Shown here: positions 5,322 to 61,359 of the stretch, piece by piece
Layout of the letters: every line of letters begins with the position of its first letter
How positions within the stretch are numbered: the stretch's first letter is position 1
Source: a bacterium
Lineage (GTDB): Bacteria > Desulfobacterota > Binatia > HRBIN30 > CADEER01
Direction: 5' to 3'
NCBI GenBank assembly: GCA_019637795.1
Contig: JAHBUY010000003.1
Coordinates: 7,409-71,408 of the forward strand
DNA: 64,000 bases
Program-made: the position numbers and the translations under genes
The notes under the pieces: model-generated
The model's database searches: none
What the model was told of the DNA's origin: nothing
The model's input: only the letters and a program-made list of their open reading frames with translations

Positions 5322-5537
5322 CCGACTCCCGCGAGCCCGCTCTCGCCAACCCGCCCGACCGCGCGAGCGCCTCGGTGACGGCGATTCCCCGGCCCCCGCT
5401 CGCGCCGAGAATCCGTTGCCCCCACCAACCCTTGCAGCACCGCGCGCCACGGACTACTGCACGTCCCCGCGCGTCGCCCCGAGCCGCTCGCAATCCGCAC
5501 CCGTGGTCTTTGACTTTCGACAACTTGCAGTGGAACT
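5322..5537 (+). promoter_or_regulatory. CRISPR leader (216 bp between cas4-cas1 stop and first repeat)
   Basis: Position only. The degenerate terminal repeat is at the far end of the array, so this end is the leader-proximal side. Confidence 0.5.
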
Positions 5538-7904
5538 CCTTCCGCGGCTGAACAGCCGCGGCCTCATTGAAGCGACGCCGGTCTGCGCCTGGTGGAGGAC
5601 AAGGTCCGCCCTTCCGCGGCTGAACAGCCGCGGCCTCATTGAAGCCTGCGCGGCCGCGAGATGTCGGTCCGCCTGATTCTCCCTTCCGCGGCTGAACAGC
5701 CGCGGCCTCATTGAAGCGTGATCGCGCCATCGACCCCGAGGATCCGCGCCAACGCCCCTTCCGCGGCTGAACAGCCGCGGCCTCATTGAAGCCTGCAGCC
5801 GTCCGTAGTCGAGGGCCTTCGCGTCGCCTTCCGCGGCTGAACAGCCGCGGCCTCATTGAAGCGCGGGCTTGCTCGCAATCCATGGTCCGCTGCGGCACCC
5901 TTCCGCGGCTGAACAGCCGCGGCCTCATTGAAGCGCGAAGAGCCGCCCCGGCGCCTCACTCCACAAGAACTCCTTCCGCGGCTGAACAGCCGCGGCCTCA
6001 TTGAAGCCCGATCTCGTGCGCTTCGGGCGGTATCGCGACACGCCGCCCTTCCGCGGCTGAACAGCCGCGGCCTCATTGAAGCACGCCCGGCGCGGGCGGC
6101 ACGGCCACGCCGAAGCCGCCTTCCGCGGCTGAACAGCCGCGGCCTCATTGAAGCACCGCCGCCTCGTCCGCCGCGCTCATCGCTGCACCTCCGCCTTCCG
6201 CGGCTGAACAGCCGCGGCCTCATTGAAGCGACACCTATCGCTTCGGCGTCACCAACGACACCTGCCTTCCGCGGCTGAACAGCCGCGGCCTCATTGAAGC
6301 ACCTGCTCGGGGCCCAGCTCGCCCAGAAGGCTCCCCACCTTCCGCGGCTGAACAGCCGCGGCCTCATTGAAGCTCGCGGCAACCGACGCGGATGGAGAGC
6401 ACGCCATCGCGCCTTCCGCGGCTGAACAGCCGCGGCCTCATTGAAGCCTCACCTTCGCCGCGCAGGGCATCTACGCGACGCCGACCTTCCGCGGCTGAAC
6501 AGCCGCGGCCTCATTGAAGCCACCCACCACAATCGGCGGTTCAATCCGCTAGAAAGGCCTTCCGCGGCTGAACAGCCGCGGCCTCATTGAAGCCGCCTGC
6601 ACCGCGACATGGGCGCGCGATGGATCGACCTTCCGCGGCTGAACAGCCGCGGCCTCATTGAAGCGAGCCAGCGTTGCGCGTTGGCGAAGCCGCGCAACGC
6701 CTTCCGCGGCTGAACAGCCGCGGCCTCATTGAAGCCTCCTCATAGATCCGCCGCGTCTCGGCCGGCAGCGTCGACCTTCCGCGGCTGAACAGCCGCGGCC
6801 TCATTGAAGCCGCGCACGCAAGCGCCGTCTGCCGCGTATCTCAATTATCCTTCCGCGGCTGAACAGCCGCGGCCTCATTGAAGCCTGCTCGGTGTCGTGA
6901 CGATAGCCGTCGATCGCACCCTTCCGCGGCTGAACAGCCGCGGCCTCATTGAAGCGCGCCGTCGAGGCTGGCGCCGACGAGGCTGGCGCGGACCCTTCCG
7001 CGGCTGAACAGCCGCGGCCTCATTGAAGCCTGGCAAGCTGACACGGACACTTACGAGATCGTCGACCCTTCCGCGGCTGAACAGCCGCGGCCTCATTGAA
7101 GCCAGCCCCCTCATTTCCGCTCCCTGAGTCACGACTCCCACCTTCCGCGGCTGAACAGCCGCGGCCTCATTGAAGCACGGTCACGCGCGGCCCATCCTTC
7201 TTGGCCGTGCCCGGCCTTCCGCGGCTGAACAGCCGCGGCCTCATTGAAGCCGGCCTACCCTGGCGGCCTCGATCTGCCCCACGGCTCCTTCCGCGGCTGA
7301 ACAGCCGCGGCCTCATTGAAGCGCGCGCTCGACCCACGGTACATCTTGGAGTTCACGGGGCCTTCCGCGGCTGAACAGCCGCGGCCTCATTGAAGCCAGA
7401 TTGTCGGTGAGGTGGTGTCGGGTCTCCGCACCCTTCCGCGGCTGAACAGCCGCGGCCTCATTGAAGCCAGCTCGGCGGCTTTCTGCTGCGCCGCGTTCTT
7501 GTCCTTCCGCGGCTGAACAGCCGCGGCCTCATTGAAGCAACAAGATAAACTTTACGTGCCAGTGGAAACTGAGGTACCTTCCGCGGCTGAACAGCCGCGG
7601 CCTCATTGAAGCAGCCTCAGGCGTTCCCACGTCGCGTCGCGCGAGCCACCCTTCCGCGGCTGAACAGCCGCGGCCTCATTGAAGCATCGCCGCCATCCCT
7701 CACCTCCATTCAAAAAGGGGCCGGCCTTCCGCGGCTGAACAGCCGCGGCCTCATTGAAGCGCTGCCACCGCTCTCACCACCGCTGACGAATGCGGCCTTC
7801 CGCGGCTGAACAGCCGCGGCCTCATTGAAGCCACTCGACGCTGGTGCAGGCAGACCTCGACCAGAAGCCCTTCCGCGGCTGAACAGCCGCGGCCTCAATT
7901 AGGT
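5538..7904 (+). CRISPR. CRISPR array: 33 repeats of 36 bp (CCTTCCGCGGCTGAACAGCCGCGGCCTCATTGAAGC) and 32 spacers of 34-39 bp. The last repeat is degenerate (…CCTCAATTAGGT).
   Basis: Repeat starts counted directly at 5538, 5610, 5682, 5757, 5827, 5899, 5972, 6047, 6119, 6194, 6265, 6338, 6412, 6485, 6558, 6629, 6700, 6775, 6849, 6920, 6994, 7067, 7141, 7215, 7287, 7361, 7432, 7503, 7577, 7650, 7725, 7796, 7869. The repeat has an internal 7-bp palindrome GCGGCTG/CAGCCGC and an ATTGAAGC 3' tail. Confidence 0.97.
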
Positions 7905-8121
7905 CAAGCCGGCCGTCTGGGCGCCGCGAGCGGCGCCCAGACGGAGAAGCGCGGTCCGCGTGCTGCGCGTGCGCGGGCCTTCCAGGTGGGACGGACGCGG
8001 TGGCGCGCCGCAGCGTCGGCGCTGCGCGTTCGTTCTCGGCGCCGGGCTTGCCACGCGGCGGCGGCGGGCGGTCGCGCGGGAGCGCGGCCCGCCAGGGCGC
8101 CAACGCCGCGCGGGGCCCGGG

Positions 8122-12847: not shown

Positions 12848-13932
12848 GCGCGGCGCGGCGTCCCGACCAGCCGGCCGTAGGCGCCGCGCAGGGCGACGCG
12901 TCCGAGGCGATAGGGCAGCGTCCGCGCCGGCGGCGGCAGGACCAGCGCCAGCGCGTGCAGGCCGGCCATCGCCAGCCCGCGCGCGTCGCCCAACACGCTC
13001 CCCGGCGAAGCGCGCAGCGCCGCCGCCAGGATGCGGCGCGACAGCGCCACGTCGCCGCTGGAGAACGCCTTGCGGCTGAGCACCCGCAGGTGCAGCGCCC
13101 AGGTGCGCGCCGCCTCGCGGTCGCCGTAGCCGGGCACGTAGCTGCGGTAGCGCTCGAGGTAGGCGCGGCTGCCGGCGATGTAGCTGTCGAAGGTGTGCAT
13201 CTGGCTGCCGGCGCGCACCCGATAGCCGGTCAACGGCTCGGGCACCAGGCGGAAGGCGTGCGGCGCGCGCACCGAGAGGCGGGTCCACATTTCGGCGTCC
13301 TCGCAACTCGCCAGCGACTCGTCGAACAGGCCGGCGGCGGCGAAGCAGGCGCGGCGCACGATCGCGGTGCTGCCGTTGCCGATGTGGTTGCGGGCGATCA
13401 GGTCGCGCGTCGTCGGCCGCCGGCAGCGGCTGACCAGGAGCTGGCCGGTGGGCGTTCCGCTCTCGTCGAGATACGCGGAATGGGAGAACGTCAGGCCGAC
13501 CCCGGGGTCGGCGTCCATCACCGCCACCTGCTTCGCCGCCTTCTCCGGGAACCAGACGTCGTCGCCGTCGCAGAAGCCGATCAGCGGCGCCCGCGCCTGC
13601 GCGATGCCGGCGTTGCGGGCCGCGGCGAGGCCACGGTTCGCCTGCGTCACCACCGTCAGGCGCGGGTCGGCGACCGCCAACAGGTGCGCCAGGGTGTCGT
13701 CGGTCGAGCCGTCGTCGACCGCGATCACCTCCAACGCCGTGAGCGTCTGGCCCAGCAGCGACGCCACCGCCGCGGCGGCGAGCCGGCCGACGTTGTAGCA
13801 GGGCACCACCACCGAGAGGCGCAGCGCCGCGCCGGCGATGGCGGCGGCGCGCACCACGCCGGGATGGTGGAGCGGCCGCGGCGGCAACGGCGGCACCCGC
13901 GGCGGCGGCGCGGCGCCGGCGGCGGCGCTCAT
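12844..13932 (-). CDS. family 2 glycosyltransferase
   Basis: LSVVVPCYNVGRL ... VIAVDDGSTDDT ... FCDGDDVW ... are GT2 DxD-type motifs. The start was checked at 13932. Confidence 0.9.
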   Translation of the reverse strand: MSAAAGAAPPPRVPPLPPRPLHHPGVVRAAAIAGAALRLSVVVPCYNVGRLAAAAVASLLGQTLTALEVIAVDDGSTDDTLAHLLAVADPRLTVVTQANRGLAAARNAGIAQARAPLIGFCDGDDVWFPEKAAKQVAVMDADPGVGLTFSHSAYLDESGTPTGQLLVSRCRRPTTRDLIARNHIGNGSTAIVRRACFAAAGLFDESLASCEDAEMWTRLSVRAPHAFRLVPEPLTGYRVRAGSQMHTFDSYIAGSRAYLERYRSYVPGYGDREAARTWALHLRVLSRKAFSSGDVALSRRILAAALRASPGSVLGDARGLAMAGLHALALVLPPPARTLPYRLGRVALRGAYGRLVGTPRRA

Positions 13933-18566: not shown

Positions 18567-19640
18567 TCAGGGCTCGGCCGCGGGTCGCGGACGGGTCGCC
18601 AGGACGGCGTGGAAGCCGGCGCGCATGGCGCCGCGGACGGCGCGGTAGAAGCGCTGCTGTCCGGCCGGCGGCAGCGGCCAGGCGCCGAGGTGCAGGGCGA
18701 GCATGCCGAGCGCCCGCCAATCGCGCAGCGGCAGGGTCGGCGCCTGGCGCAGGGCGGCGGCGAAGAGCTGCCGCGAGCGCGCCACCTGGCCGTTGGAGAA
18801 CGCCTTGCGGCTGGCGATGCGCAGGCCCTCGGCGTGGCTGCGCGCCGCGTCGCGGGCGGTGAAGCCGGGCACGTAGGCGCGGAAGCGCTCGAGGGCGCGG
18901 ACGTAGCCGCGGACGAAGTCGTCGTAGGTGGTCGACATGCTGCCGGCGCGCACCCGGTAGCCGGTGAGCACCGCCGGCAGCAGGCGGACCTCGTAGCCGC
19001 TGCACGCCGCGGCGCGCACCCACATCTCGAAGTCCTCGCAGCTCCCCAGCGACTCGTCGAACAGGCCGGCGCGGGCGAACACCTCGCGCCGCGCCACCAC
19101 CGTGCTGCCGTTGCCGACGTGGTTGCGGCGGATCAGGTCGCGCGCCGACGGCGCCCGGCAGCGCGACAGCAGGTACTGGCCGGTGCGGGCGCCGCGCTCG
19201 TCGAGGTAGGCGGAGTGCGAGAAGGTGAGGCCGACGCGCGGCGCGGCGGCGAGCAGCGCCAGGTGCCGCTCCGCCTTGCGGGCGAACCAGAGATCGTCGG
19301 CGTCGCAGAAGCCGATCAGCGGCGCGCGCGCCAGCAGCAGGCCGCTGTTGCGGGCGCCGGCGAGACCGCGGTTCGCCTGCACGGCGACGGTGAGGCGCGG
19401 GTCGGCGATGCCGGCCAGCACCGCGAGGCTGTCGTCGCGCGAGCCGTCGTCGACCACCACCACCTCGAGATCCGGCATGGTCTGCGCGAACAGCGACGCC
19501 AGGGTGTCGCGGACGTAGGGCGCGGTGTCGTAGCTGGGCACGATCACGGAGAGGCGCAGGCGCCGCGCCGGCACCGCCGCCCGGCGGAGGACGGTGAGCT
19601 GGCGCGGCAACGGGCCGGGGTCGCGGAGGGCGGCGGTCAC
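18567..19640 (-). CDS. family 2 glycosyltransferase, paralog of 12844..13932
   Basis: LSVIVPSYDTAPY ... VVVVDDGSRDDS ... FCDADDLW. About 60% of the aligned residues are identical to the first GT2. The GTG start at 19640 overlaps the upstream TGA. Confidence 0.85.
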   Translation of the reverse strand: MTAALRDPGPLPRQLTVLRRAAVPARRLRLSVIVPSYDTAPYVRDTLASLFAQTMPDLEVVVVDDGSRDDSLAVLAGIADPRLTVAVQANRGLAGARNSGLLLARAPLIGFCDADDLWFARKAERHLALLAAAPRVGLTFSHSAYLDERGARTGQYLLSRCRAPSARDLIRRNHVGNGSTVVARREVFARAGLFDESLGSCEDFEMWVRAAACSGYEVRLLPAVLTGYRVRAGSMSTTYDDFVRGYVRALERFRAYVPGFTARDAARSHAEGLRIASRKAFSNGQVARSRQLFAAALRQAPTLPLRDWRALGMLALHLGAWPLPPAGQQRFYRAVRGAMRAGFHAVLATRPRPAAEP

Positions 19641-40498: not shown

Positions 40499-41944
40499 AT
40501 GACGGATTACGAAGCGGTCATCGGGCTGGAAGTGCACGCCGAGCTGCTCACCGAGTCGAAGATCTTCTGCGGCTGCTCGGCGAAGTTCGGCGCGGCGCCG
40601 AACGAGAACACCTGCCCGCTCTGCCTGGCCCTGCCGGGGGTGCTGCCGGTGCTCAACCGGCGGGTGGTCGAGTTCGCGATCAAGGCCGGCCTGGCGACCC
40701 ACTGCGCGATCGCGCCGCTCAGCCGCTGGGCGCGCAAGAACTACTTCTACCCCGACCTGCCGAAGGGCTATCAGATCAGCCAGTACGAGCTGCCGATCTG
40801 CCTCGACGGACGGATCGACATCGAGGTCGACGGCACCACCCGCCCGGTGCGCCTCACCCGCATCCACATGGAGGAGGACACCGGCAAGAACATCCACGAC
40901 CAGCACGGCGACGCCAGCCTGGTGGACTACAACCGCTGCGGCGTGCCGCTGCTCGAGATCGTCAGCGAGCCCGACCTCCGCACCCCGGCGGAGGCCGGCG
41001 CCTACCTGCGCAAGCTGCGCCAGATCCTCCAGTACCTCGAGGTGTGCGACGGCAACATGGAGGAGGGCAGCTTCCGCTGCGACGCCAACATCTCGGTGCG
41101 GCCGCGCGGCACCGCGGCGTTCGGCACCAAGGCGGAAGTGAAGAACATGAACTCCTTCCGCGCCGTCGAGAAGGCGATCGAGCACGAGATCGAGCGCCAG
41201 ATCGACCTCGTCCGCCACGGCGAGAAGGTGGTCCAGGAGACGCGGCTGTGGGATCCCGACCGCGAGGAGACGCGCTCGATGCGCTCCAAGGAGTCGGCGC
41301 ACGACTACCGGTACTTCCCCGATCCCGACCTGCTGCCGCTGGAAGTCTCGCGCCAGTGGATCGCGGACGTGCAGGCGACCATGCCCGAGCTGCCCGACGC
41401 GCGCCGGGCGCGCTTCGCCAGCGCCTACGGCCTGCCCGCCTACGACGCCGAGGTGCTGACCGCGCGCAAGGACATCGCCGACTATTTCGAGACCGCGGTG
41501 CGCGCCGGCGGCAGCGCCAAGGCGGTCAGCAACTGGGTGATGGGCGACATCCTGCGCATCGTCCGCGAGCGCAAGCTCGACGAGGCGCTGGTCATCCGCG
41601 ACTGGCCGGTGTCGCCGGCGCATCTCGCGGAGATGCTGACGCTGATCGACGACGACACGATCAGCGGCAAGATCGCCAAGACCGTGTTCGAGCAGATGGT
41701 CGCGACCGGCAAGGCGCCGGCGGCGATCGTCGCCGAGCAGGGCCTCAGCCAGGTCAGCGACAGCGGCGCCATCGAGGCCGCCATCGCCGCGGTGCTCGAT
41801 GCCAATGCCGACAAGGTGGCCGAGTACCGCGCCGGCAAGGACAAGCTCTTCGGCTTCTTCGTCGGCCAGGTGATGAAGGCCACGCAGGGCAAGGCGAATC
41901 CGGGGAAGGTGAACGAGCTGCTCAAGCAACGGTTGGCAGAATGA
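40499..41944 (+). CDS. gatB: Glu-tRNA(Gln) amidotransferase subunit B
   Basis: [27 protein letters not shown] ... is the GatB N-terminal signature. Confidence 0.95.
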
Positions 41945-41946
41945 CA

Positions 41947-42060
41947 GGTTGTTAGGTTGCTAGTTGTTAGGTTGTTAGGTTGTTAGGTTGTTAGGTTTTC
42001 CGGGCGACTCATACTGATAACCTAACAACCTAACAACCTAACAACCAACAACCTAACAAC
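41947..42060. repeat. AT-rich inverted repeat whose arms are tandem octamers ((GTTGTTAG)n ... loop ... (CTAACAAC)n); long hairpin between gatB stop and cysK RBS
   Basis: Left arm 41947..41997 has 6 units (one variant GTTGCTAG). The loop is ttttccgggcgactcatactgat. Right arm 42019..42060 has 5 units (one missing a T). RBS aaagggagg sits at 42067 and the cysK ATG at 42079. Confidence 0.85.
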
Positions 42061-42078
42061 TTGCTAAAGGGAGGCGTC

Positions 42079-48530: not shown

Positions 48531-50561
48531 ATGACCAAGTACGCGACGCGCTTGCTCCTGGCCGCCGCCATGGCGGCGCTCGTACCGGCCCATGCCGGGG
48601 CGCTCGAACGCGCCATCTACCTGCTGAGTCAGACGGCGCGCGGCTATGCCGCCGAGGGGCGCAGCGAGGGGACGGCGGTCGACGGCAACGGGCTGCTGAG
48701 CGTCTACAACTCCAACGCCATCAACCTGACCTCGCCACCGCAGACGACCTCGCGCAATCAGGTCTACCTGCGCGACCTCGACGAAACCGCCTCGTCGCTG
48801 GTCAGCAAGGCGCCGGACGGCAAGGCCGGCAACCGCCCCAGCCAGTCGGGGGGCTTCGCGCCGGGCATCAGCGCCGACGGGCGGTTCGTCGCCTTCTCGT
48901 CGCAGGCCACCAACCTGGTGCCCGACGACACCAACGGCCTCGAGGACGTCTTCGTGGCCAACGTCGCCACCGGCGAGGTCGAGCTCATCAGTCGCGGCAT
49001 CGACGGCCCGGCCAACGGGGTCAGCGGCTTCCCGCGCCTGAGCGCCGACGGCCGCTACGTCGTCTTCCAGTCGGCGGCCAGGAACCTGGTGGCCGACGAC
49101 ACCAACAACGTCACCGACATCTTCCTCTACGATCGCGCCGAAGGGATCATGCGCCGGGTCAGCGTCGGCAGCGACGGCGCCCAGGCCAACGGCGCCAGCA
49201 TCACGCCGGCGATCAGCGACGACGGCCGCTACGTCGCCTTCGCCTCGCGCGCCACGAATCTGGTGAACCCGTCGCCGAGCGACGCCTTCGAGCAGATCTA
49301 CGTCGCCGACTGGGAGACGCAGTCGGTGCAACTGGGGTCGGTGAACGACCAGGGCCAGGCCGCCAATGCGCGAAGCTTCCTGCCCGACCTGACCGCCGAC
49401 GGCGGCGAGGTGGCGTTCAAGTCGGAAGCGTTCAACCTGGTTCCCAACGACACCAACGGCGTGCCCGACGTCTTCGTCCGCAACCTCACCACCAACACCA
49501 CGCAGCGGGTGAGCGTCGACGACTTCGGCAACCAGTCGAACGGCCTCAGCGGCGGTCCCGGCATCAGCGCCGATGGCCGCTTCGTCGCCTTCGCCTCGTT
49601 CGCCTCGAACTTCGTGCCCGACGACGGCAACGGCTTCAGCGACGTCTACGTGTACGACCGCTTCCCGCCGGGACGGAACCAGGGCCGGATCGCCCGCGTG
49701 ACCATCGCGTACAACAACTTCGGCGAGCCCGACCAGGGCGTCGCCGACTTTCCGGTCAGCATCAGCGCCGACGGCCGCTGGATCGGCTTCGCCTCCGCCG
49801 CCTCGAACCTGGTGCCGAACGATCTCAACAACGATCTCGACGCCTTCCTCGCCTGCAACCCGTTCGACGCCTTCCAGTGCGCGGCGCCGACGCCGACCCC
49901 GACGCCGACGGAGCCGCCGGCGGAGCTGCCGTGCGTCGGCGACTGCAGCGGCGACGATCAGGTCACCATCGACGACCTCATCCGCATGGTGAACATCGCC
50001 CTCGGCCTGCGCGGCGTCTGCGGCGACGACCAGGGCATGGGCGCCTGCCTGGCCGGCGACGCCAACTGCGACTGCCAGATCACCGTCGAGGAGATCATCC
50101 AGGCGGTGAACAACAGCCTCATGGGCTGCGCGACCTTCGACGTCTGCCCGCTCGCCGAGCACGAGATGATCTGCTGCGCCGGCGGCCCGGCGACGCCGAC
50201 GGCGACCCGCACCGCGACCATGACGCCGGACGGCGGCGCGCCGACCGCCACCGCGACGCCGACGCCGCCGGCCACGCCGACCGCGACGACGAGCGGCCCG
50301 AGCGGCCCCTGCGTCGGCGATTGCAACGGCAACGGCACGGTGACCGTCGACGACCTGATCCGCATGGTCAACATCGCCCTCGACCTGCAGCCGTTGTGCC
50401 CCGGCGAGGGCGGCGGCGGCTGCCTGGCGGGCGACGCCAACTGCGACTGCCGCATCACCGTCGACGACATCATCCGCGCCGTGAACAACAGCCTGGGCGA
50501 CACGTGCACCGACTTCGGCGCCTGCCAACTGTCGGAGCACGCGGCCCAGTGCTGCGGCTAG
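48531..50561 (+). CDS. secreted protein with PD40/TolB-like beta-propeller repeats and two C-terminal dockerin-like modules
   Basis: A signal peptide is present. More than 6 repeats follow the pattern GxSxDGRxVAFxSxAxNLVPxDTNxxxDVFV. After Thr/Pro-rich linkers come two modules, each with paired Ca-loop-like segments (GDCSGDDQVTIDDLIRMVNIAL and GDANCDCQITVEEIIQAVNNSL). Confidence 0.7.
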   Translation: MTKYATRLLLAAAMAALVPAHAGALERAIYLLSQTARGYAAEGRSEGTAVDGNGLLSVYNSNAINLTSPPQTTSRNQVYLRDLDETASSLVSKAPDGKAGNRPSQSGGFAPGISADGRFVAFSSQATNLVPDDTNGLEDVFVANVATGEVELISRGIDGPANGVSGFPRLSADGRYVVFQSAARNLVADDTNNVTDIFLYDRAEGIMRRVSVGSDGAQANGASITPAISDDGRYVAFASRATNLVNPSPSDAFEQIYVADWETQSVQLGSVNDQGQAANARSFLPDLTADGGEVAFKSEAFNLVPNDTNGVPDVFVRNLTTNTTQRVSVDDFGNQSNGLSGGPGISADGRFVAFASFASNFVPDDGNGFSDVYVYDRFPPGRNQGRIARVTIAYNNFGEPDQGVADFPVSISADGRWIGFASAASNLVPNDLNNDLDAFLACNPFDAFQCAAPTPTPTPTEPPAELPCVGDCSGDDQVTIDDLIRMVNIALGLRGVCGDDQGMGACLAGDANCDCQITVEEIIQAVNNSLMGCATFDVCPLAEHEMICCAGGPATPTATRTATMTPDGGAPTATATPTPPATPTATTSGPSGPCVGDCNGNGTVTVDDLIRMVNIALDLQPLCPGEGGGGCLAGDANCDCRITVDDIIRAVNNSLGDTCTDFGACQLSEHAAQCCG

Positions 50562-50582: not shown

Positions 50583-51494
50583 ATGAAGCGTCTCGCAGGC
50601 GTCGTCGGCACCGTCGCGGCGGTGCTGTTCTGTTCCGCCGCCGCCCGCGCGGCGATCATCTCCTGTGGCAGCGTCACTGCCGTGCGCGGCAGCTCCGCTC
50701 CGGTGACGATCTCCCTCCAGCTCGAGGGAGACGAGGTCGTCGCCGGCACCCAGAACGACCTCCAGTTCGACAGCGACGCGTTCGACATCGCGCCGCGGGA
50801 CTGCGTCATCAATCCCGCCATCGGACCCGACACCGAGGCCGACAAGACCCTGAGCACCAGCCTGCCGCCGGGCGAGATCCCGAGCGTGCGCAACCTGGTG
50901 GTGGCGCTCGACAACACCAACGCCATTCCCTCCGGAGCGCTCTACACCTGCAGTTTCCACGTCCGCGGCAGCGCCGAGCTCGGCGAGCACGTCCTCACCA
51001 ACGTCAACGTCCGCGCCAGCAACCCGCAGGGCATGGTCGTCCCGACCACCGCCGGCGACTGCACGATCACCGTGCAGGACGTGTCGCCGACCCCGACTCC
51101 GCGCTGCACCAACGACGACGACTGCCCGAGCGGCGAGGTGTGCGTGAACAACACCTGCGTCACCGCCACGCCGACCAGGACCCCGATCGGCTACTGCACC
51201 GGCGACCGCGACTGCCCCAACGGCCAGGTGTGCGTGAACAACATGTGCGTCACCCCGACGCCGACCCGCACCCCGATCGGCTACTGCACCGGCGACCAGG
51301 ACTGCCCCAACGGCCAGGTGTGCGTGAACAACATGTGCGTCGCCGTCACGCCCACCGCGACGAGGAAGAGCGGCGGGGGCGGGGGGTGCAGTTGCGAGAT
51401 CGATCCCGGCGCCCGCGGCCGCAGCGGCGACGTGCTGGCGGTGCTCCTGCCGGCGCTGATCCTGGCGCTGCGCTGGCGGCGGCGCCGCGCCTGA
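50583..51494 (+). CDS. cell-surface protein: cohesin-like N-terminal domain, three Cys-rich repeats, MYXO-CTERM-like sorting tail
   Basis: A signal peptide is followed by a cohesin-like beta-sandwich segment (SAPVTISLQLEGDEVVAGTQNDLQFDSDAFDI ...). Three copies of CTxDxDCPxGxVCVNNxCV are separated by TPTPTRTP linkers. The tail is GGGGGCSCEID ... VLAVLLPALILALRWRRRRA. Confidence 0.65.
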   Translation: MKRLAGVVGTVAAVLFCSAAARAAIISCGSVTAVRGSSAPVTISLQLEGDEVVAGTQNDLQFDSDAFDIAPRDCVINPAIGPDTEADKTLSTSLPPGEIPSVRNLVVALDNTNAIPSGALYTCSFHVRGSAELGEHVLTNVNVRASNPQGMVVPTTAGDCTITVQDVSPTPTPRCTNDDDCPSGEVCVNNTCVTATPTRTPIGYCTGDRDCPNGQVCVNNMCVTPTPTRTPIGYCTGDQDCPNGQVCVNNMCVAVTPTATRKSGGGGGCSCEIDPGARGRSGDVLAVLLPALILALRWRRRRA

Positions 51495-52894: not shown

Positions 52895-53035
52895 TGCGCT
52901 AACCACAGATGAACACGGATGGCCACAGATCAACACGGGTCCGCCCCCCTCCCCGCCGGCTGGGGTGGGAGGCGGACCCGTGTTCATCTGTGGCCATCTG
53001 CGTTCATCTGAGGCTTCCGGAGGTACGTCTCGATC
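52895..53035. terminator. long imperfect palindrome between the cobA-hemD 3' end and hemB. It has two copies of each arm and could form alternative stems.
   Basis: Left arm ggccacagatcaacacgggtccgcc (52921..52945) pairs with ggcggacccgtgttcatctgtggcc (52971..52995) with 1 mismatch. A second left copy cacagatgaacacgg (52904..52918) is the perfect complement of the right arm. The loop is itself quasi-palindromic. An extra gttcatctg lies at 53001..53009. Confidence 0.6.
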
Positions 53036-57546: not shown

Positions 57547-58209
57547 TCAGAGATGGGCGCCGAGGCTGGCGAGCGACACCTGCGCCCCGGCGTGGGCGGC
57601 GAGCAGGCGATCGACCGCCGCCGCATCGGGGCGGCGCAGGCATTCGAGGAGGTCCGAGGCCACCAGCGCGCGCAGGATGCGTTGCCGCTCGGCGCTGGGT
57701 AAGTCCCGCGCCTGCAGGTGGGCGCGCAGGCGGGCGAGGACGTCGAGCGCGCGCTCGTACTCGGGACCGAGCAGGCGGTCGATCTCGTCGCGGACCCGCC
57801 CGGCCAGGGCGGGGCTGCCGCCGCCCGTGGAGACCGCCACCGCGAGCTCGCCCCGACGCAGCACCGCCGGAACGATGAAGCGGCACCATTGCGGCCGGTC
57901 CACCACGTTCAGCAGCACGCCCGCCGCCTCGGCTGCCCGCGCCAGCTCGGCGTGCAGCGCCTCGTCGTCGGTGGCCGCGTAGGCGAGCCGGGCGCCGTCC
58001 AGGTCGCCGTCCTGGTACGTCCGGTGGAAGTGGCCGATCTCACCCCGCGCCAGCCGCTCGGCCAGACCGGGGGTCAGGGAGGGCGCCACCACCGTCACCC
58101 GCGCCCCCGCGGCCAGCAGGGACTCGACCTTGCGCTCCGCCACCTCCCCGCCGCCGATGACCACGCAACGCTCCCCCGCCATCTGCAGGAAGACCGGATA
58201 GTAGGCCAT
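57547..58209 (-). CDS. sirC: precorrin-2 dehydrogenase / sirohydrochlorin ferrochelatase (siroheme synthase N-domain, SirC/CysG-N)
   Basis: MAYYPVFLQMAGERCVVIGGGEVAERKVESLLAAGARVTVVAP is the Rossmann motif. The start was checked at 58209. Confidence 0.85.
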   Translation of the reverse strand: MAYYPVFLQMAGERCVVIGGGEVAERKVESLLAAGARVTVVAPSLTPGLAERLARGEIGHFHRTYQDGDLDGARLAYAATDDEALHAELARAAEAAGVLLNVVDRPQWCRFIVPAVLRRGELAVAVSTGGGSPALAGRVRDEIDRLLGPEYERALDVLARLRAHLQARDLPSAERQRILRALVASDLLECLRRPDAAAVDRLLAAHAGAQVSLASLGAHL

Positions 58210-58508
58210 TGCCGGACCGTAGCACAGGAGGCCGACGCGGCGCACCGAAGCCGCCGCCCGGGACCGCGGGCGTCTCGCCCGCACCGCAGCGCGCAACGTG
58301 CGAGCGCCGCCGCCCTTCCGCTCGTCCCCGAGCCGCTGTGCTGCGTATGCGTCGCACGCACGAGCAACCGATGATCACCAAGCGCGATCTGCGCATTGCG
58401 TGCCGGCTCAGCAGCAGCGCGGCGGGCGCCGTCGCCATCGCCAAGCCGGGTCGCCGCGCGAGACGCACCCACGCCGCAGGCGCCCGCAGCGGGACTCGCG
58501 CGCACGCG

Positions 58509-58775
58509 CTATGCCGCGCTGCCTGCCCTGGATCGCACCGATCGCCTCGGGGTGGCCCGTCTCGCCAGCGCGGCCACCTGGACGAGCGCCCGCAGCCCCT
58601 CGTTCACGGCCCGCGCGTTGCCGAAGTAGGGCCACAGCTCGGGGTCGACCACCACCGCATGCGCCTGGCGCGGGAAACGGGCGGCATAGCGTCCGCGGCT
58701 CGCCCTGCTCCAATCGTAGCGTTCGAGTGAATCCTCCGCCGGTCGCTTGCGGCGGCTAGCCGATGCCTTCTTCAT
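58509..58775 (-). CDS. brnA: BrnA-type antitoxin (DUF4415-like)
   Basis: ...YDWSRASRGRYAARF ... NARAVNEGLRALV follows the BrnA pattern. It overlaps the brnT 3' end by 20 nt. Confidence 0.6.
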   Translation of the reverse strand: MKKASASRRKRPAEDSLERYDWSRASRGRYAARFPRQAHAVVVDPELWPYFGNARAVNEGLRALVQVAALARRATPRRSVRSRAGSAA

Positions 58776-59043
58776 ATCTTCTCCTCTGCGCCGCGGACGC
58801 CTTCCGGGCGCTGATCAGGCGGATTCGCTCACCTCTCTCGGCGTGGACCACGAACAAGACGCGTTGTCGGGACGAGCAGCCGATGATCACGAAGCGGCTG
58901 GGAACGAAGCGATCCGGCGCATCGATCGCATTGGGGTCGGAGAACACGGTCAGCGCCTCCGGAAAGGACACCCCGTGCTTGACCAGATTCGCGCGCGCCT
59001 TGGCGTCGTCCCATTCGAAATCGCCATAGACCGCCCGCCCCAT
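58756..59043 (-). CDS. brnT: BrnT-type toxin (DUF497)
   Basis: FEWDDAKARANLVKHGVSFPEALTVFSDPNAI ... RFVIIG ... HAERGERIRLISARKA is the DUF497/BrnT signature. Confidence 0.75.
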   Translation of the reverse strand: MGRAVYGDFEWDDAKARANLVKHGVSFPEALTVFSDPNAIDAPDRFVPSRFVIIGCSSRQRVLFVVHAERGERIRLISARKASAAQRRRYEEGIG

Positions 59044-59152
59044 GCGCCCACACGCTATACCAGCGGCCCGCCGAGGCGAGAAACCGACATCGCGGCGGCC
59101 GAGCCGCGGCGGCGAGCCCATGCAGCCGACGGCGCCGCACGCCGGCAACCGA

Positions 59153-59515
59153 TCAGCGGCCGCCGATCACGACCGGCGCCCGGCCGCTGCCGAGCCGCAG
59201 CACGGTCCAGCCACCGGCCAGCGCCCGTTCGACCATGCGCGTCTCGCGCGCCAGGGAAAAACCGGCGGTCAGCGCGTAGCCGAAGCGCGGGATGCGCGCC
59301 GGGCGCAGGTCGAGGGCCCGTTGCGCCAGCAGGCGCTGCGGCCCGAGCAGCTCGACGTAGCGGCCCCGGCCGGAGCTGTGCTGGCGCAGCTCGCGCTGCA
59401 GCTCCAGCAGCTTGGACTCGGCGTCGATCTCGAAGGCCAGGGCGTTGAGCGTGTTGCGCTTGCTGCGCCGGCAGGCGCGGTAGTGCCGCCACAGGTCGGC
59501 GAAGGAGACGTCCAT
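59153..59515 (-). pseudogene. truncated reverse transcriptase (DGR/retron-type RT), N-terminal about 55 aa only, then unrelated sequence
   Basis: MDVSFADLWRHYRACRRSKRNTLNALAFEIDAESKLLELQRELRQHSSGRGRY matches the conserved N-terminus of DGR RTs (FxNLxxAxxxAxxGKR ... F ... LQxEL ... Y). No downstream RT motifs are found in any frame. Confidence 0.5.
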
Positions 59516-59570
59516 GGCAAGTGTGGCGGGCGCCGCCGGGGCGGCGCCCGCCACGGGGCCGATCACGATC

Positions 59571-59707
59571 CGCTACGCACGGCGCCAACGTAGTTGTTGT
59601 TGGTGCGGTTGTTCGCGTTCACGTTCCCATCGTTGAAGTTCGCGATCCACGCGTTGTCCGGATTGGGCGCGTAGGTAGTAGCAGACCAGTAGTTGTTGGA
59701 CTGCGTC
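59571..59707 (-). repeat. DGR template-repeat (TR)-like copy of the 3' end of the DUF1566 gene; extremely AAC-rich
   Basis: The coding-sense translation is TQSNNYWSATTYAPNPDNAWIANFNDGNVNANNRTNNNYVGAVRSGS*, with 12 AAC codons in 46. It is homologous to 60184..60324. It lies between the avd stub and the RT stub. Confidence 0.65.
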
Positions 59708-59723
59708 GCCCTCGCCGCTTGTG

Positions 59724-59893
59724 CCCGCCGCCGATGACCACGCAACGCTCCCCCGCCATCTGCAGGAAGACCGGGTAGTAGGCCATTGCCGGACCGTAGC
59801 ACAGGAGCCCGATGCGGCGCACCGAAGCCGCCGCCCGGGACCGCGGGCGTCTCGCCCGCAGCGCAGCGCGCAACGTGCGAGCGCCGCCGCCCT
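59724..59893 (-). repeat. 170-bp near-identical (about 97%) direct duplicate of the sirC promoter and first 21 codons (58147..58316), inserted where avd should be
   Basis: Base-by-base comparison gives about 5 mismatches in 170. It includes the sirC ATG copy at 59779..59781. Confidence 0.9.
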
Positions 59894-60057
59894 CGTTCCG
59901 GTTGCCTACCGAGGAACCTCCCGTCGCTTCGAGCTGGGTCGTCCCGACACGATCCGCGTGGAGGGCGCCGCTGGTCGGAGACTCCGACGGCGCTGCGCTG
60001 CGGGCGAGACGCCCGCGGTCCCGGATGGGTGCAGGGAGGTGGCGCAGGCCGACGCGG

Positions 60058-60120
60058 CTCGAAGTACAGGCAGAGATCGTAGGCGGCCTTGTAGATGGGA
60101 AGGTGCTCGCTCTGCGCCAT
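60058..60120 (-). pseudogene. avd: N-terminal stub (about 21 aa) of an Avd-like four-helix-bundle protein (PF05635 / 23S rRNA IVS family)
   Basis: MAQSEHLPIYKAAYDLCLYFE resembles the conserved N-terminus of four-helix-bundle/Avd proteins. The frame then runs into unrelated duplicated sequence. Confidence 0.45.
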
Positions 60121-60180
60121 CGGCCCGGTGTGGGGGGCTCCCGCCCCACACCCCCCCGTATCAAATGGTCCAATGATCGA

Positions 60181-61359
60181 TCACGAGCCGCTACGCACAG
60201 CGCGAACGTAGTAGCTGCTGGTGCGGCCGCCCAAGTCCACGTACCCATGGCCGAAGGACGGCAGCCACACGTAGAGCGGATCGGGCGCGGAGGTAGTAGC
60301 AGACCAATGGTGGCTGGACCGCGTGCACGAGCACGCCGCGTTCGTGATGTCGGCGCACGCAACGCCGCAGCTCCCGCCGTCGAAGGCCACGTCGACCACC
60401 GGCGGCGTGGTGTCGGCATAGTCGAGAATGCCCTGCAGCTCCTGCAGCCTCGGCACGCGCCAGTCGTTGTGGCCGGCGAAGTTGGCGCTGTTGAGATCGG
60501 CGGCCCAGGTCCAGATAGTGGTCGACTGGTTGCAGGTGCCGTCGCCGCCGGTGCACTCGTCGCAGCCGGTGGTGCCGCCCTCGGCGTTGGCGGCGCACAG
60601 CGTCGCCGCCGCCGCCGCCGGCTGGCAGAACTTGCTGGTGTTGACCGTGCAGGTGCCCGACCACGGGTAGTAGTTGTCGGCGTCGTGCGGGTTGGCGAAG
60701 TCCGGGTTGTAGTCGAGCTTGACCTTCTTCTCCCACTGCAGGCCGCTCTGGTTGTCGGTGACCGTCCCGTCGGCGTTGTCGGCGAAGCGGGCGTTCCAAC
60801 AGCCGCTGGTGTCGAAGACGCAGCCGCTGCCGCAGCGCAACACGCCCCCGACGTAGCCCTCGGTGGCGCAGGTGGCGCCGTTGAGGGTCCCCAGATCGCA
60901 CTGCTCGCCGCCGTCGATGGCGCCGTTGCCGCACAGCTCGGCGGCCACCAGGTCGGTCTCGCAGGTGTCGAGGTCGGTGGTGCAGGTGGTCAGCTCGTCG
61001 TTGCACTGCTGCACCGGCGGCGGCAGGCCGCCGCCGGCCAGCGCCGTCGCCAGCGCGTCGGTGTACTCGCCGATGAACGCCTGGATCGCCGCCTGGTCGC
61101 CGTTCGACGGGCACATGCCGCCGCCCGCCGCCTCGGTCTTGCCCCACTTGCCGGCGAATCCGGCGTCGCACTTCGAGAAGTCCGGCGCCCCGCCGCTCTG
61201 CGCCGCCTTGGCCTCCGCCTTCAGGCGGCAGAAGTCGTACTTGCCGGCCAGCTTCAGCTTGCCGGCCTGGCACTTCTCGGCCGGCGTCACCGCGCCAGCG
61301 CCGCCGGCGAGCGCCAGGCTCGCCAGGACAAACCCGTACCGCAGCAGATGTTCCATCGC
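60181..61359 (-). CDS. secreted/lipoprotein with Myxococcus-type cysteine-rich repeats and C-terminal DUF1566 (Lcl-like, C-type-lectin-fold) domain; putative DGR target protein
   Basis: Signal peptide MEHLLRYGFVLASLALAGGAGA. Repeats CGNGAIDGGEQCDLGTLNGATCATEGY ... CGSGCVFDTSGCW. DUF1566 motifs TVTDNQSGLQWEKK, NYYPWSG and DWRVPRLQELQGILDYA, ending ...HHWSATTSAPDPLYVWLPSFGHGYVDLGGRTSSYYVRAVRSGS. Confidence 0.75.
   Translation of the reverse strand, partial: AMEHLLRYGFVLASLALAGGAGAVTPAEKCQAGKLKLAGKYDFCRLKAEAKAAQSGGAPDFSKCDAGFAGKWGKTEAAGGGMCPSNGDQAAIQAFIGEYTDALATALAGGGLPPPVQQCNDELTTCTTDLDTCETDLVAAELCGNGAIDGGEQCDLGTLNGATCATEGYVGGVLRCGSGCVFDTSGCWNARFADNADGTVTDNQSGLQWEKKVKLDYNPDFANPHDADNYYPWSGTCTVNTSKFCQPAAAAATLCAANAEGGTTGCDECTGGDGTCNQSTTIWTWAADLNSANFAGHNDWRVPRLQELQGILDYADTTPPVVDVAFDGGSCGVACADITNAACSCTRSSHHWSATTSAPDPLYVWLPSFGHGYVDLGGRTSSYYVRAVRSGS
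60184..60324 (-). other. variable-repeat (VR)-like 3' segment of the DUF1566 gene (partner of the TR-like copy)
   Basis: Aligned with 59571..59707, there are about 33 differences in 137 nt. About 22 fall where the TR copy has A (coding sense), and every AAC codon of the TR is changed. A GC hairpin (60127..60152) lies 29-54 nt downstream of the stop. Confidence 0.6.

Follow-up and report, generated by a model that had tools for sequence, protein, structure and literature searches.

The 170-bp direct repeat on either side of a template repeat (TR) and a brnT toxin gene in this Binatia genome is probably the scar of DNA-level illegitimate recombination in an already decaying DGR, rather than a copy made by the DGR reverse transcriptase (RT). 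Ordinary recombination-mediated rearrangement had been named in the original prediction as the simpler alternative to reverse transcription, and it is supported by a microhomology junction and by the lack of an RT signature in the copy. Here, we describe the repeat, the DGR into which it is set, the short REP-like element beside it, and the explanations that we weighed.

The direct repeat and the sirC promoter

The two copies of the repeat are at 58147-58316 and 59724-59893 of the window, by which we mean the whole 64-kb stretch of DNA that was analyzed. They have the same orientation and are identical at 166 of 170 bases (97.6%), bearing out both the exact coordinates and the identity of about 97% given in the original prediction, and there is no third copy within the window. 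The content of the repeat was also correctly described. Copy 1 (minus strand), the original, comprises sirC codons 1-21 (58147-58209, with the ATG at 58209) and 107 nt upstream, and copy 2 (minus strand), the derived one, comprises the sirC promoter, the ATG and 21 codons; weak similarity may continue beyond copy 2 as far as 59913.

Strain L001, which is 92% identical, is collinear with the window across both borders of copy 1, so that copy 1 represents the resident, source context. Compared with L001, either copy is only 86-88% identical, so that the copies are closer to each other than to this strain and the duplication therefore postdates the strain split. The four inter-copy differences fall at G, G, C and T. 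Copy 2 keeps the L001 (ancestral) state at three of these four sites, which fits equally well a copy from another strain; the 3:0 split of derived states between the copies is not significant.

The source gene, sirC (precorrin-2 dehydrogenase/sirohydrochlorin ferrochelatase; 57547-58209, minus strand), matches the Pfam families NAD_binding_7 and Sirohm_synth_M and is identical to NCBI MBX3025279. It is the first gene of a sirC-ccsA-hemA-hemC cluster whose synteny is kept in 14 Binatia loci. Six nucleotides before its ATG there is an extended -10 box (TGC-TACGGT; 58216-58224, minus strand), in which the pattern TG-TA---T and its distance from the start codon are invariant across 10 aligned sequences from eight genomes. 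A consensus sigma-70 scan did not flag this box; its conservation suggests that it acts as a promoter, and the activity of its duplicated counterpart in copy 2 (59793-59801, minus strand) is likewise inferred from conservation. The sirC mRNA is probably leaderless. The copied segment had been equated with the 5' end of the sirC transcript. We consider it more likely to be promoter DNA, because it spans the conserved -10 box and reaches about 100 nt farther upstream.

An island between dsbA and sirC

The original prediction proposed a comparison with related genomes that lack the insertion. In eight related Binatia genomes, dsbA and sirC are directly adjacent, 96-204 bp apart, which identifies the DGR with its brnT module as an island that was inserted at this point. 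In the Binatia lineage studied here, the dsbA/sirC interval holds the DGR (in the order target-avd-TR-RT) and then the brnT module, and all genes from the DGR target to sirC are co-directional. We found no genome with the immediate ancestral state, i.e. an intact avd at this locus. L001 was the sole closer ancestor strain in the protein collection, and its contig ends inside the RT.

The brnT gene (58756-59043, minus strand; gene call from the Logan contig L002) encodes a 95-aa toxin that matches Pfam BrnT_toxin (PF04365) with an E-value of 1e-24. Its stop is overlapped by an 88-aa ORF (58509-58775, minus strand), which we treat from its position as a putative antitoxin partner; a BrnA domain was not detected in it by Pfam at E ≤ 10 or by NCBIfam at E ≤ 0.1. 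The 1.4 kb between the repeat copies had been described as brnTA, an RT stub and the TR. The TR and brnT are indeed there, the supposed brnA is without a family match, and the RT is represented by a remnant that is not a simple stub, having arisen by an in-frame internal deletion.

Decay of the DGR

We measured decay against two intact related DGRs, L018 (with a 516-aa RT) and L022 (535-aa RT). The DGR target gene (Lcl_C/DUF1566, 391 aa; 60181-61356, minus strand) matches Pfam Lcl_C and equals the NCBI protein P0009. The alignment of VR with TR places the VR of this gene at 60178-60324 and the TR at 59560-59706 (minus strand); the TR is 78% identical to the VR and shares 138 of 147 positions with the TR of L018. 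There are 33 TR/VR mismatches, of which 22 fall at TR adenines (22 of the 40 TR adenines are changed in the VR). The remaining 11 are at non-adenine sites, compared with one in L018 and two in L022, and drift is seen in both the TR and the VR. A self-inverted match between the TR and the RT start (59523-59554) marks the DGR RNA spacer hairpin, which has an analog in L018 at 4100-4179.

Searches by tblastn with the RTs of L018 and L022 identified the RT remnant (59153-59515, minus strand; 120 aa, the 120/137-aa ORF). Amino acids 1-49 (59515-59369) are joined in frame to amino acids ~439-511 (59365-59153), with the fusion point at about 59365/59366 and a short G/C run at the deletion junction. 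The loss amounts to about 390 codons and takes with it all the catalytic motifs; the remnant has no RVT_1 match, nor any other in Pfam or NCBIfam. Strain L001 retains RT sequence upstream of this junction. A candidate separate gene upstream of brnT, truncated by the DGR, proved to be the RT C-terminus.

Only codons 1-21 of avd remain (60058-60120, minus strand), with 19 of the 21 residues identical to the 134-codon bAvd of L018 and L022. Across 59724-60057, none of the frames shows similarity to Avd, and homology to the two intact DGRs resumes at about 59731, 25 nt before the TR. The copy thus sits where the body of avd should be, as the original prediction stated. The 25 nt at 59707-59731 (minus strand), defined by alignment with L018, L022 and sirC, are the surviving end of the native avd-TR spacer. 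Of the upstream TR-flanking RNA segment, about 130 nt of which are common to L018 and L022, these 25 nt are all that is left, and the downstream palindrome is kept. Rfam gave no matches in 58000-60400 or in the REP-bearing loci described below.

Since the RT has lost the entire catalytic core and 21 codons are all that is left of Avd, the DGR cannot work in cis, and the 64-kb window holds no other RT or Avd genes able to act in trans. Among the hallmarks of a functional DGR, the TR/VR pair with adenine mismatches is present; a catalytic RT, Avd, current activity and the full set of TR-flanking RNA segments are not. Homing by this DGR seems to have ceased well before the duplication arose, because the non-adenine divergence between TR and VR (11/107) exceeds the divergence between the two repeat copies (4/170; p = 0.006).

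Architecture of the patch

A 325-nt patch occupies the place of the DNA that would begin at avd codon 22 and end 25 nt short of the TR. From the avd side, it consists of 33 nt of filler (filler A, 60025-60057), a 35-mer, 96 nt of filler (filler B, 59894-59989) and the sirC copy. Filler A has no significant match and filler B none above shuffled controls. Their source was sought by Smith-Waterman alignment on the window, by exact matches in the 4-kb neighborhood and by blastn on 38 loci, and nothing rose above the shuffled controls; a 12-nt match of filler A to 58229-58240 was equalled in 11 of 200 shuffles and is not significant. At the junction between copy 2 and the native pre-TR sequence there is an 8-nt microhomology, GCGGCGGG (sense strand; 59724-59731), which is common to the pre-TR sequence and sirC codons 19-21. 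Microhomology is also plausible at the RT deletion.

A dispersed REP-like 35-mer

The original prediction reported a perfect inverted 35-bp piece of the repeat at 59970-60004. Such a sequence exists, its correct position being 59990-60024 (minus strand), with the end of the feature accordingly at 60024. It is a perfect inverted match to 59835-59869 (plus strand) in copy 2 and differs at one position from the version in copy 1 (58258-58292, plus strand), which has one derived mismatch, at 58284. The 35-mer is a palindrome with a 7-bp stem and a 3-nt loop. An exact 33-mer from it occurs in seven further metagenome contigs, where the 35-nt borders are the same and the flanks unrelated; these loci also contain diverged extra copies.

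The 35-mer often occurs in inverted doublets, and we therefore describe it as REP/REPIN-like. Such doublets are found in the contigs L035 (202-236/267-301), L037 (799-833/877-911) and L033 (961-995/1036-1070); the spacers of the clear doublets are 30-43 nt long, compared with 120 nt for the pair in the window. Singletons are located 2-38 nt past stop codons in a fixed orientation, for example 2 nt past the stop of an aldehyde-dehydrogenase-like ORF (L036 and L038) and 38 nt past a Lactamase_B gene (L026). In the window, the 35-mer is located between the brnT module and the sirC promoter. Within the 64-kb window, the repeat is confined to this locus, where it has three copies; no further match reaches 27/35. 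A possible decayed second REP arm beside copy 1 was discarded, its best match being 20/35, a level found hundreds of times in the window.

By its sequence and borders, the inverted 35-mer is an independent member of this dispersed family. It had been interpreted as a piece of the 170-bp segment, a view that the existence of a dispersed family with exactly those 35-nt borders contradicts. The proposed potential for a large cruciform survives in part: extrusion from duplex DNA is unlikely across a 120-nt spacer, and for single-stranded DNA or RNA the predictions strongly favor a hairpin. To our knowledge, REPINs have not been described in the host phylum (Binatia).

Origin of the duplicated segment

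In this strain, the RT has lost about 390 internal codons, and the 325-nt patch has taken the place of avd from codon 22 to 25 nt before the TR. The TR-proximal 170 nt of the patch faithfully reproduce the sirC promoter, ATG and first 21 codons, which are located 1.58 kb downstream. In the course of events that we favor, the junction between sirC codon 21 and the pre-TR sequence would have been formed in either of two ways. A microhomology-mediated tandem duplication of the segment from the TR to the 5' end of sirC may have come first, with avd and most of the upstream unit then lost in a deletion; alternatively, a break in avd may have been repaired in one step by microhomology-mediated template switching. 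The other 164 nt (filler, 35-mer and filler) would derive from a source carrying its own dispersed REP-like copy.

We regard it as unlikely that the two 170-bp copies are instead alleles of two strains, brought together by homology-facilitated illegitimate recombination. The donor would be DNA from a related strain carrying pre-TR-TR-RT remnant-brnT-sirC, and in the recipient, sirC would already have been preceded by target, truncated avd, filler, REP and filler; homology in sirC would have anchored one end, and the 8-nt microhomology in sirC codons 19-21 would have provided the joint at the other. In its favor, microhomology is seen at one junction only, and the far border of the repeat is simply the point from which the two flanks differ. 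The 2.4% divergence of the copies is within the strain-level range, and the outgroup states lie in copy 2, with the derived states in the ‘functional’ copy 1, though that split, as noted, lacks significance. What weighs against it is the need to postulate a recipient whose DGR was deleted still further, of which we found no example, and the fact that target/VR and TR match as a TR/VR pair even though they would stem from different strains.

A more active role for the patch seems quite improbable to us, namely that the captured sirC promoter and leaderless ATG drive a transcript of the TR, RT remnant and brnT behind a very stable 35-bp REP hairpin, with the 170-bp repeats making TR-brnT excisable and the toxin-antitoxin module stabilizing it. 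A rarer variant of this idea would have a still-active DGR RT make a non-mutagenic template switch on read-through RNA.

Very improbable, too, is that the structure is an artifact, i.e. a chimeric or duplicated join made at repeated sequence in a metagenome-assembled genome, which is what the source is. The avd-side half of the patch was not found in independent assemblies: contigs over the inverted arm and fillers were sought by exact-sequence look-up of ten predicted ORFs or unitig translations, and there are none in the collection. The REP-like repeats are also possible mis-join points, but a mis-join at the 35-mer leaves the other abnormal junctions (avd codon 21 to filler, and filler to copy 2) unaccounted for. 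The copies are separated by four fixed differences, and the contig L002 (SRR12908356) matches window positions 59753 to 58287 at 100% identity, spanning the junction of TR and copy 2. It ends exactly 30 nt inside each repeat copy, and L003 (SRR30849500) ends at the same base, 58287. In a k = 31 graph, breaks k-1 = 30 nt inside a repeat are the behavior of a genuine two-context repeat; these breaks, from two runs, together with the four differences make the collapsed-repeat error raised in the original prediction unlikely.

We consider it extremely unlikely that the copy arose when the DGR RT switched templates or made off-target cDNA, an origin suggested as one possibility in the original prediction. 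An active RT would have switched from TR RNA to a sirC-containing RNA, either sirC mRNA or an RT-brnT-sirC read-through transcript, and the chimeric cDNA would have integrated upstream of the TR. The orientation fits, as the patch directly follows the TR when the sense strand is read 3' to 5', and with all genes from target to sirC co-directional, a read-through RNA that includes the region upstream of sirC is conceivable. Against this, none of 13 sense-strand adenines and only one of 29 thymines differ between the copies, compared with 22 of 40 TR adenines in the VR (P about 3e-5 for 0/13 at the TR-to-VR rate; Fisher p = 2.7e-4). On non-DGR templates, too, bRT-Avd is inherently adenine-mutagenic, and the cDNAs that it makes from them measure only 5-35 nt (PMC6182149), compared with 170 nt for the copy. 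The copy also extends about 100 nt upstream of the ATG, which is probably leaderless, and takes in the conserved -10 box. Integration of cDNA upstream of the TR would lie outside the DGR pathways that we know of. Finally, to judge from the non-adenine TR/VR divergence, homing had ended long before the duplication took place, and the inverted 35-mer is a REP-family member rather than a snap-back product.

Equally little weight can be given to the movement of the inverted 35-mers and their spacer (59835-60024) as a REPIN-like unit by a RAYT-type transposase, carrying sirC-flanking DNA along: REPINs are known mobile units (PMC3116915, PMC3337134) and the pair shares the plus-then-minus arrangement of the L035 and L037 doublets, but homology to copy 1 continues past the 35-mer for 111 nt in one direction and 24 nt in the other, much farther than a REPIN would reach, the spacer measures 120 nt compared with 30-43 nt in the clear doublets, and copy 1 and L001 have a single 35-mer without a significant second arm.

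Consequences and significance

The patch has destroyed both avd and the conserved RNA segment upstream of the TR. An intact copy of the sirC promoter is now directed into the TR, RT remnant and brnT, whose transcription it may drive incidentally. Recombination between the 170-bp repeats could loop out the 1.4-kb segment with these three elements, a loss against which a toxin-antitoxin module in the segment would select.

The duplication in this dead DGR is of modest value in itself. The locus nevertheless provides a well-resolved example of the death of a chromosomal DGR beside a toxin-antitoxin module, through RT deletion, avd replacement and TR/VR drift. It also illustrates a simple adenine test that can rule out RT involvement in rearrangements beside a TR, and it cautions that rearrangements near retroelements should not be taken as retro-events. 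More useful than the duplication may be the 35-nt REP/REPIN-like repeat, of which several environmental Binatia-type contigs carry perfectly conserved copies.

Comparison with known systems

Bacterial microhomology-mediated tandem duplications have short-junction join points that are later remodeled by deletion, and replication template switching is a related route. The locus shares with them an A-B-A structure, a novel junction between sirC codon 21 and the pre-TR sequence that falls in a G/C-rich microhomology of 8 nt, another deletion close by, at a short G/C run in the RT, and faithful copying without base-specific bias; it differs in having 164 nt of filler, including a repeat element, at the other junction. 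With the cDNAs of the DGR RT-Avd complex (Handa et al., 2018; PMC6182149) it shares only the position beside the TR and the orientation, whereas the copy is without adenine mutagenesis, is 170 nt long, contains promoter DNA and lies upstream of the TR rather than at the VR.

The 35-mer resembles REP/REPIN elements (Bertels and Rainey, 2011, PMC3116915; PMC3337134) in its shortness, its palindrome, its fixed borders in unrelated flanks, its inverted doublets, and the closeness of its singletons to stop codons in a fixed orientation; the 120-nt spacer of the pair in the window sets it apart. The overlapping two-gene layout is the sole respect in which the 88-aa ORF fits the BrnA of BrnT/BrnA toxin-antitoxin systems.

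The island as a whole resembles degenerate or remnant DGRs, in which a TR/VR pair and a target persist after the loss of the RT, Avd or both. Its order is target-avd-TR-RT, the target is of the Lcl_C/C-type-lectin type and carries the VR at its C-terminus, the TR/VR mismatches are biased toward adenines, a spacer hairpin precedes the RT, and synteny with the intact L018 and L022 is close. It departs from them in the drift between TR and VR at 11 non-adenine sites and in the fate of the avd body, which here has been not merely deleted but replaced by host promoter DNA.

The direct repeat and its assembly support

The 64-kb window holds just one pair of 170-bp sirC-start copies. Both face the same way and agree at 166 of 170 bases, close to the roughly 97% identity given in the original prediction. 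Copy 1 (58147-58316) comprises, as described there, sirC codons 1-21 and 107 nt upstream; sirC itself (57547-58209; Pfam NAD_binding_7 and Sirohm_synth_M), like all genes of the DGR-sirC region, is on the minus strand. The sequence comes from a metagenome-assembled 'bacterium' at NCBI (locus tags KF840_102xx), the relatives of which are Candidatus Binatia.

A collapsed repeat had been named as the possible artefact. Four bases distinguish the copies, and so the repeat is neither a collapsed nor a duplicated pile of reads. Logan graphs are built at k = 31, and a true repeat that sits in two sequence contexts stops an assembly at k-1 bases. One Logan contig, L002 (from run SRR12908356), is 100% identical to window positions 59753..58287, crosses the junction between TR and copy 2 and ends exactly 30 nt within each copy; another, L003 (SRR30849500), also ends at base 58287. 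These stops and the four differences fit a genuine repeat. Within the patch that contains copy 2, the half nearer avd was found in no independent contig and is read from the MAG.

A DGR island between dsbA and sirC

In eight Binatia genomes (L004-L011), dsbA and sirC stand back to back, 96-204 bp apart, so that ~58250 to ~61570 represents an island inserted in the dsbA-sirC intergenic region. We recovered two intact DGRs, L018 and L022, with targets 54-66% identical; L018 consists of target, 134-aa bAvd, TR and 516-aa RT. Three blocks of the window align to them: target and avd codons 1-21 (61312..60057); the last 25 nt of spacer followed by TR and RT aa 1-49 (59731..59363); and RT aa ~439-511 (59365..59184).

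Where L018 has 496 nt between avd codon 22 and a point 25 nt before TR, the window has a 325-nt patch, which confirms that copy 2 sits in the place of the avd body. In gene orientation the patch runs from filler A (33 nt, 60057-60025) through a 35-mer (60024-59990) and filler B (96 nt, 59989-59894) to copy 2 (170 nt, 59893-59724). The junction of copy 2 with native pre-TR sequence falls inside GCGGCGGG, an 8-nt stretch common to sirC codons 19-21 and the DGR spacer (as in L018). Neither filler resembled anything in the window, its neighbourhood or any fetched locus above shuffled controls.

A 92%-identical strain, L001 (SRR12908347), shares the order brnT, 88-aa ORF, sirC and both flanks of copy 1, which makes copy 1 the resident original. 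As identity is 97.6% between the two copies but only 86-88% between them and L001, the duplication is later than the split from that strain.

Decay of the DGR

The 'RT stub' of the original prediction is a remnant, although one produced by an in-frame internal deletion that removed the whole catalytic core. The ORF at 59153-59515, annotated as the 120-aa hypothetical protein KF840_10260, fuses RT aa 1-49 in frame to aa ~439-511 at about 59365/59366. This deletion is absent from L001, which retains the RT sequence upstream of the junction, and is thus strain-specific. The sequence before brnT was also considered as a foreign gene; alignment to L018 and L022 identified it as the RT C-terminus.

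TR (59560-59706) and VR (60178-60324) differ at 22 of 40 TR adenines and at 11 non-adenine sites, against one such site in L018 and two in L022. At the 11 sites the L018 TR state is kept by TR at seven and by VR at three, so both have drifted since the last homing. Non-adenine TR/VR divergence (11/107) exceeds that between the copies (4/170; p = 0.006), by which the DGR seems to have been inactive before the duplication.

DGRs of this family recurrently adjoin toxin-antitoxin modules downstream. In the window, brnT (58756-59043) directly follows RT; L018 has a PIN/PhdYeFM module after the DGR (6178-6811); and loci L026-L029 (8001-8585) hold a second decayed DGR, in which brnT likewise comes straight after RT and an RT C-terminal remnant is fused to BrnT. 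Between the 88-aa ORF and copy 1, 36 nt (58349-58384), also found in L001, are 81% identical to brnT-internal 58861-58896 and encode RLVIIGCS versus RFVIIGCS in brnT; they could be what is left of another brnT copy. The L018 RT gene is bracketed by mutually similar palindromic elements of ~80 nt (4100-4179 and 5744-5848), and the long avd-TR spacer of L022 contains 82-nt inverted repeats (7863-8102).

The putative sirC promoter

In an alignment of ten sequences, TG-TA---T shows no variation and keeps a fixed distance, 6-8 nt, from the sirC start codon that follows it. The motif, TGnTAnnnT, occurs at 58216-58224 in the window and in all Binatia relatives (L004-L011). Its placement suggests an extended -10 box positioned for a leaderless sirC mRNA, and hence that the sirC-ccsA-hemA-hemC cluster is transcribed as a leaderless mRNA. 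On the side facing dsbA, the intergenic region carries a conserved TTGGCAAACC / GTACCAG motif. Copy 2 includes the -10 box together with some 100 nt lying upstream of it; the copied segment is therefore probably promoter DNA, not the transcript's 5' end as had been proposed.

A dispersed 35-mer

The inverted 35-bp copy matches 59835-59869 perfectly, at 59990-60024, 20 nt further on than originally placed. The unit, C[CT]GGGACCGCGGGCGTCTCGCCCGCAGCGCAGCGC, also occurs at 58258-58292. A search of a metagenome collection found its core 33-mer in seven contigs of mat, lake and soil origin; in these unrelated contigs (L032-L038) the element is perfectly conserved, with the same 35-nt borders and unrelated flanks. 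It contains a palindrome (7-bp stem, 3-nt loop). Inverted doublets are present in L033, L035 and L037; those of L035 and L037 have spacers of 30 and 43 nt and the '+ then -' order of the window pair. Further, diverged 35-mers lie close by in L032, L034 and L026-28. Single 35-mers stand in one orientation, 2-38 nt downstream of stop codons. Rfam gave no match for the element.

Judged by these sequence features, the 35-mer is a REP-like element. Being dispersed as such a family, it makes the inverted arm an independent member that arrived with the filler, rather than a piece of the 170-bp segment. The large cruciform once envisaged is unlikely in duplex DNA at a 120-nt spacer; folding predictions for single-stranded DNA and RNA give the two 35-mers a stem of 35 bp (z = -7.3 and -5.6).

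Origin and consequences of the repeat

At this locus a dead DGR contains a faithfully copied piece of DNA, of which one junction lies at an 8-nt microhomology, and close by a second deletion, in RT. We consider it probable that the repeat is the scar of DNA-level illegitimate recombination in a decaying DGR, with no retro-copy; the faithful copy and the microhomology junction favour the ordinary rearrangement first offered as the simpler alternative. The junction of sirC codon 21 with pre-TR sequence could have arisen if the TR-to-sirC-5' segment was duplicated in tandem through microhomology and a later deletion removed avd along with most of the upstream unit, or by one-step template-switch repair.

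Homology-anchored illegitimate recombination between strains is an unlikely source of the copies; it would account for the outgroup state of copy 2 at three of the four variable sites. Adenine mutagenesis by bRT-Avd is intrinsic, on DGR and non-DGR templates alike (Handa et al. 2018, PMC6182149), and non-DGR templates yield cDNAs of only 5-35 nt (PMC6182149). Although read-through RNA from the island may cover the promoter segment, synthesis of the copy as cDNA by the DGR RT, through template switching or off-target activity, is highly improbable: the four differences fall at G, G, C and T, none of 13 sense-strand adenines differs (P ~3e-5 at the TR-to-VR rate, 22/40 in TR), only 1 of 29 thymines does if the antisense were the template, the copy, with the -10 box and ~100 nt further upstream, is probably promoter DNA, and the DGR, with its 11 non-adenine TR/VR differences, seems to have died earlier.

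Illegitimate recombination at this site would have cost the DGR its avd gene as well as the conserved RNA segment that precedes TR. It would also have directed an intact sirC promoter copy (putative -10 box 59793-59801, ATG 59786) into TR, where the ATG would open a 55-codon out-of-frame ORF. Recombination between the repeats would remove TR, the RT remnant and brnT, a loss that the toxin-antitoxin module would counter-select.

Other features of the window

A CRISPR array at 5530-7900 has about 33 repeats of 36-37 nt (CCTTCCGCGGCTGAACAGCCGCGGCCTCATTGAAGC; Rfam CRISPR-DR16). Two AT-richer inverted repeats (41933-42067 and 52903-53013) interrupt a window of otherwise ~70% G+C: in one, the 50-nt arms are built of GTTAGGTT-type tandem units and are 90% complementary; the other forms a hairpin of 52 nt with 88% complementarity (CCACAGATGAACACGGATGG...) and lies just 3' of a cobA/hemD-like ORF. 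Diverged paralogous segments (13003-13566 and 18738-19301) are 73-76% identical and 5.7 kb apart. In-gene tandem repeats occur at 48823-49865 (period about 171-177 nt) and 51104-51373 (period 90 nt, cysteine-rich).

Comparison with known systems

The events at this locus are all of known kinds, and the by-products are of wider use: a REP-like family, and the repeated association of this DGR family with toxin-antitoxin modules. Compared with a functional DGR, the locus lacks the RT core, Avd and the RNA segment upstream of TR, and the 170-bp copy does not behave as a DGR-made cDNA; this is a degenerate DGR bearing an ordinary rearrangement scar. The 35-mer behaves as REP/REPIN elements do (PMC3116915, PMC3337134), resembling them in its fixed borders, palindrome, inverted doublets and places after stop codons.
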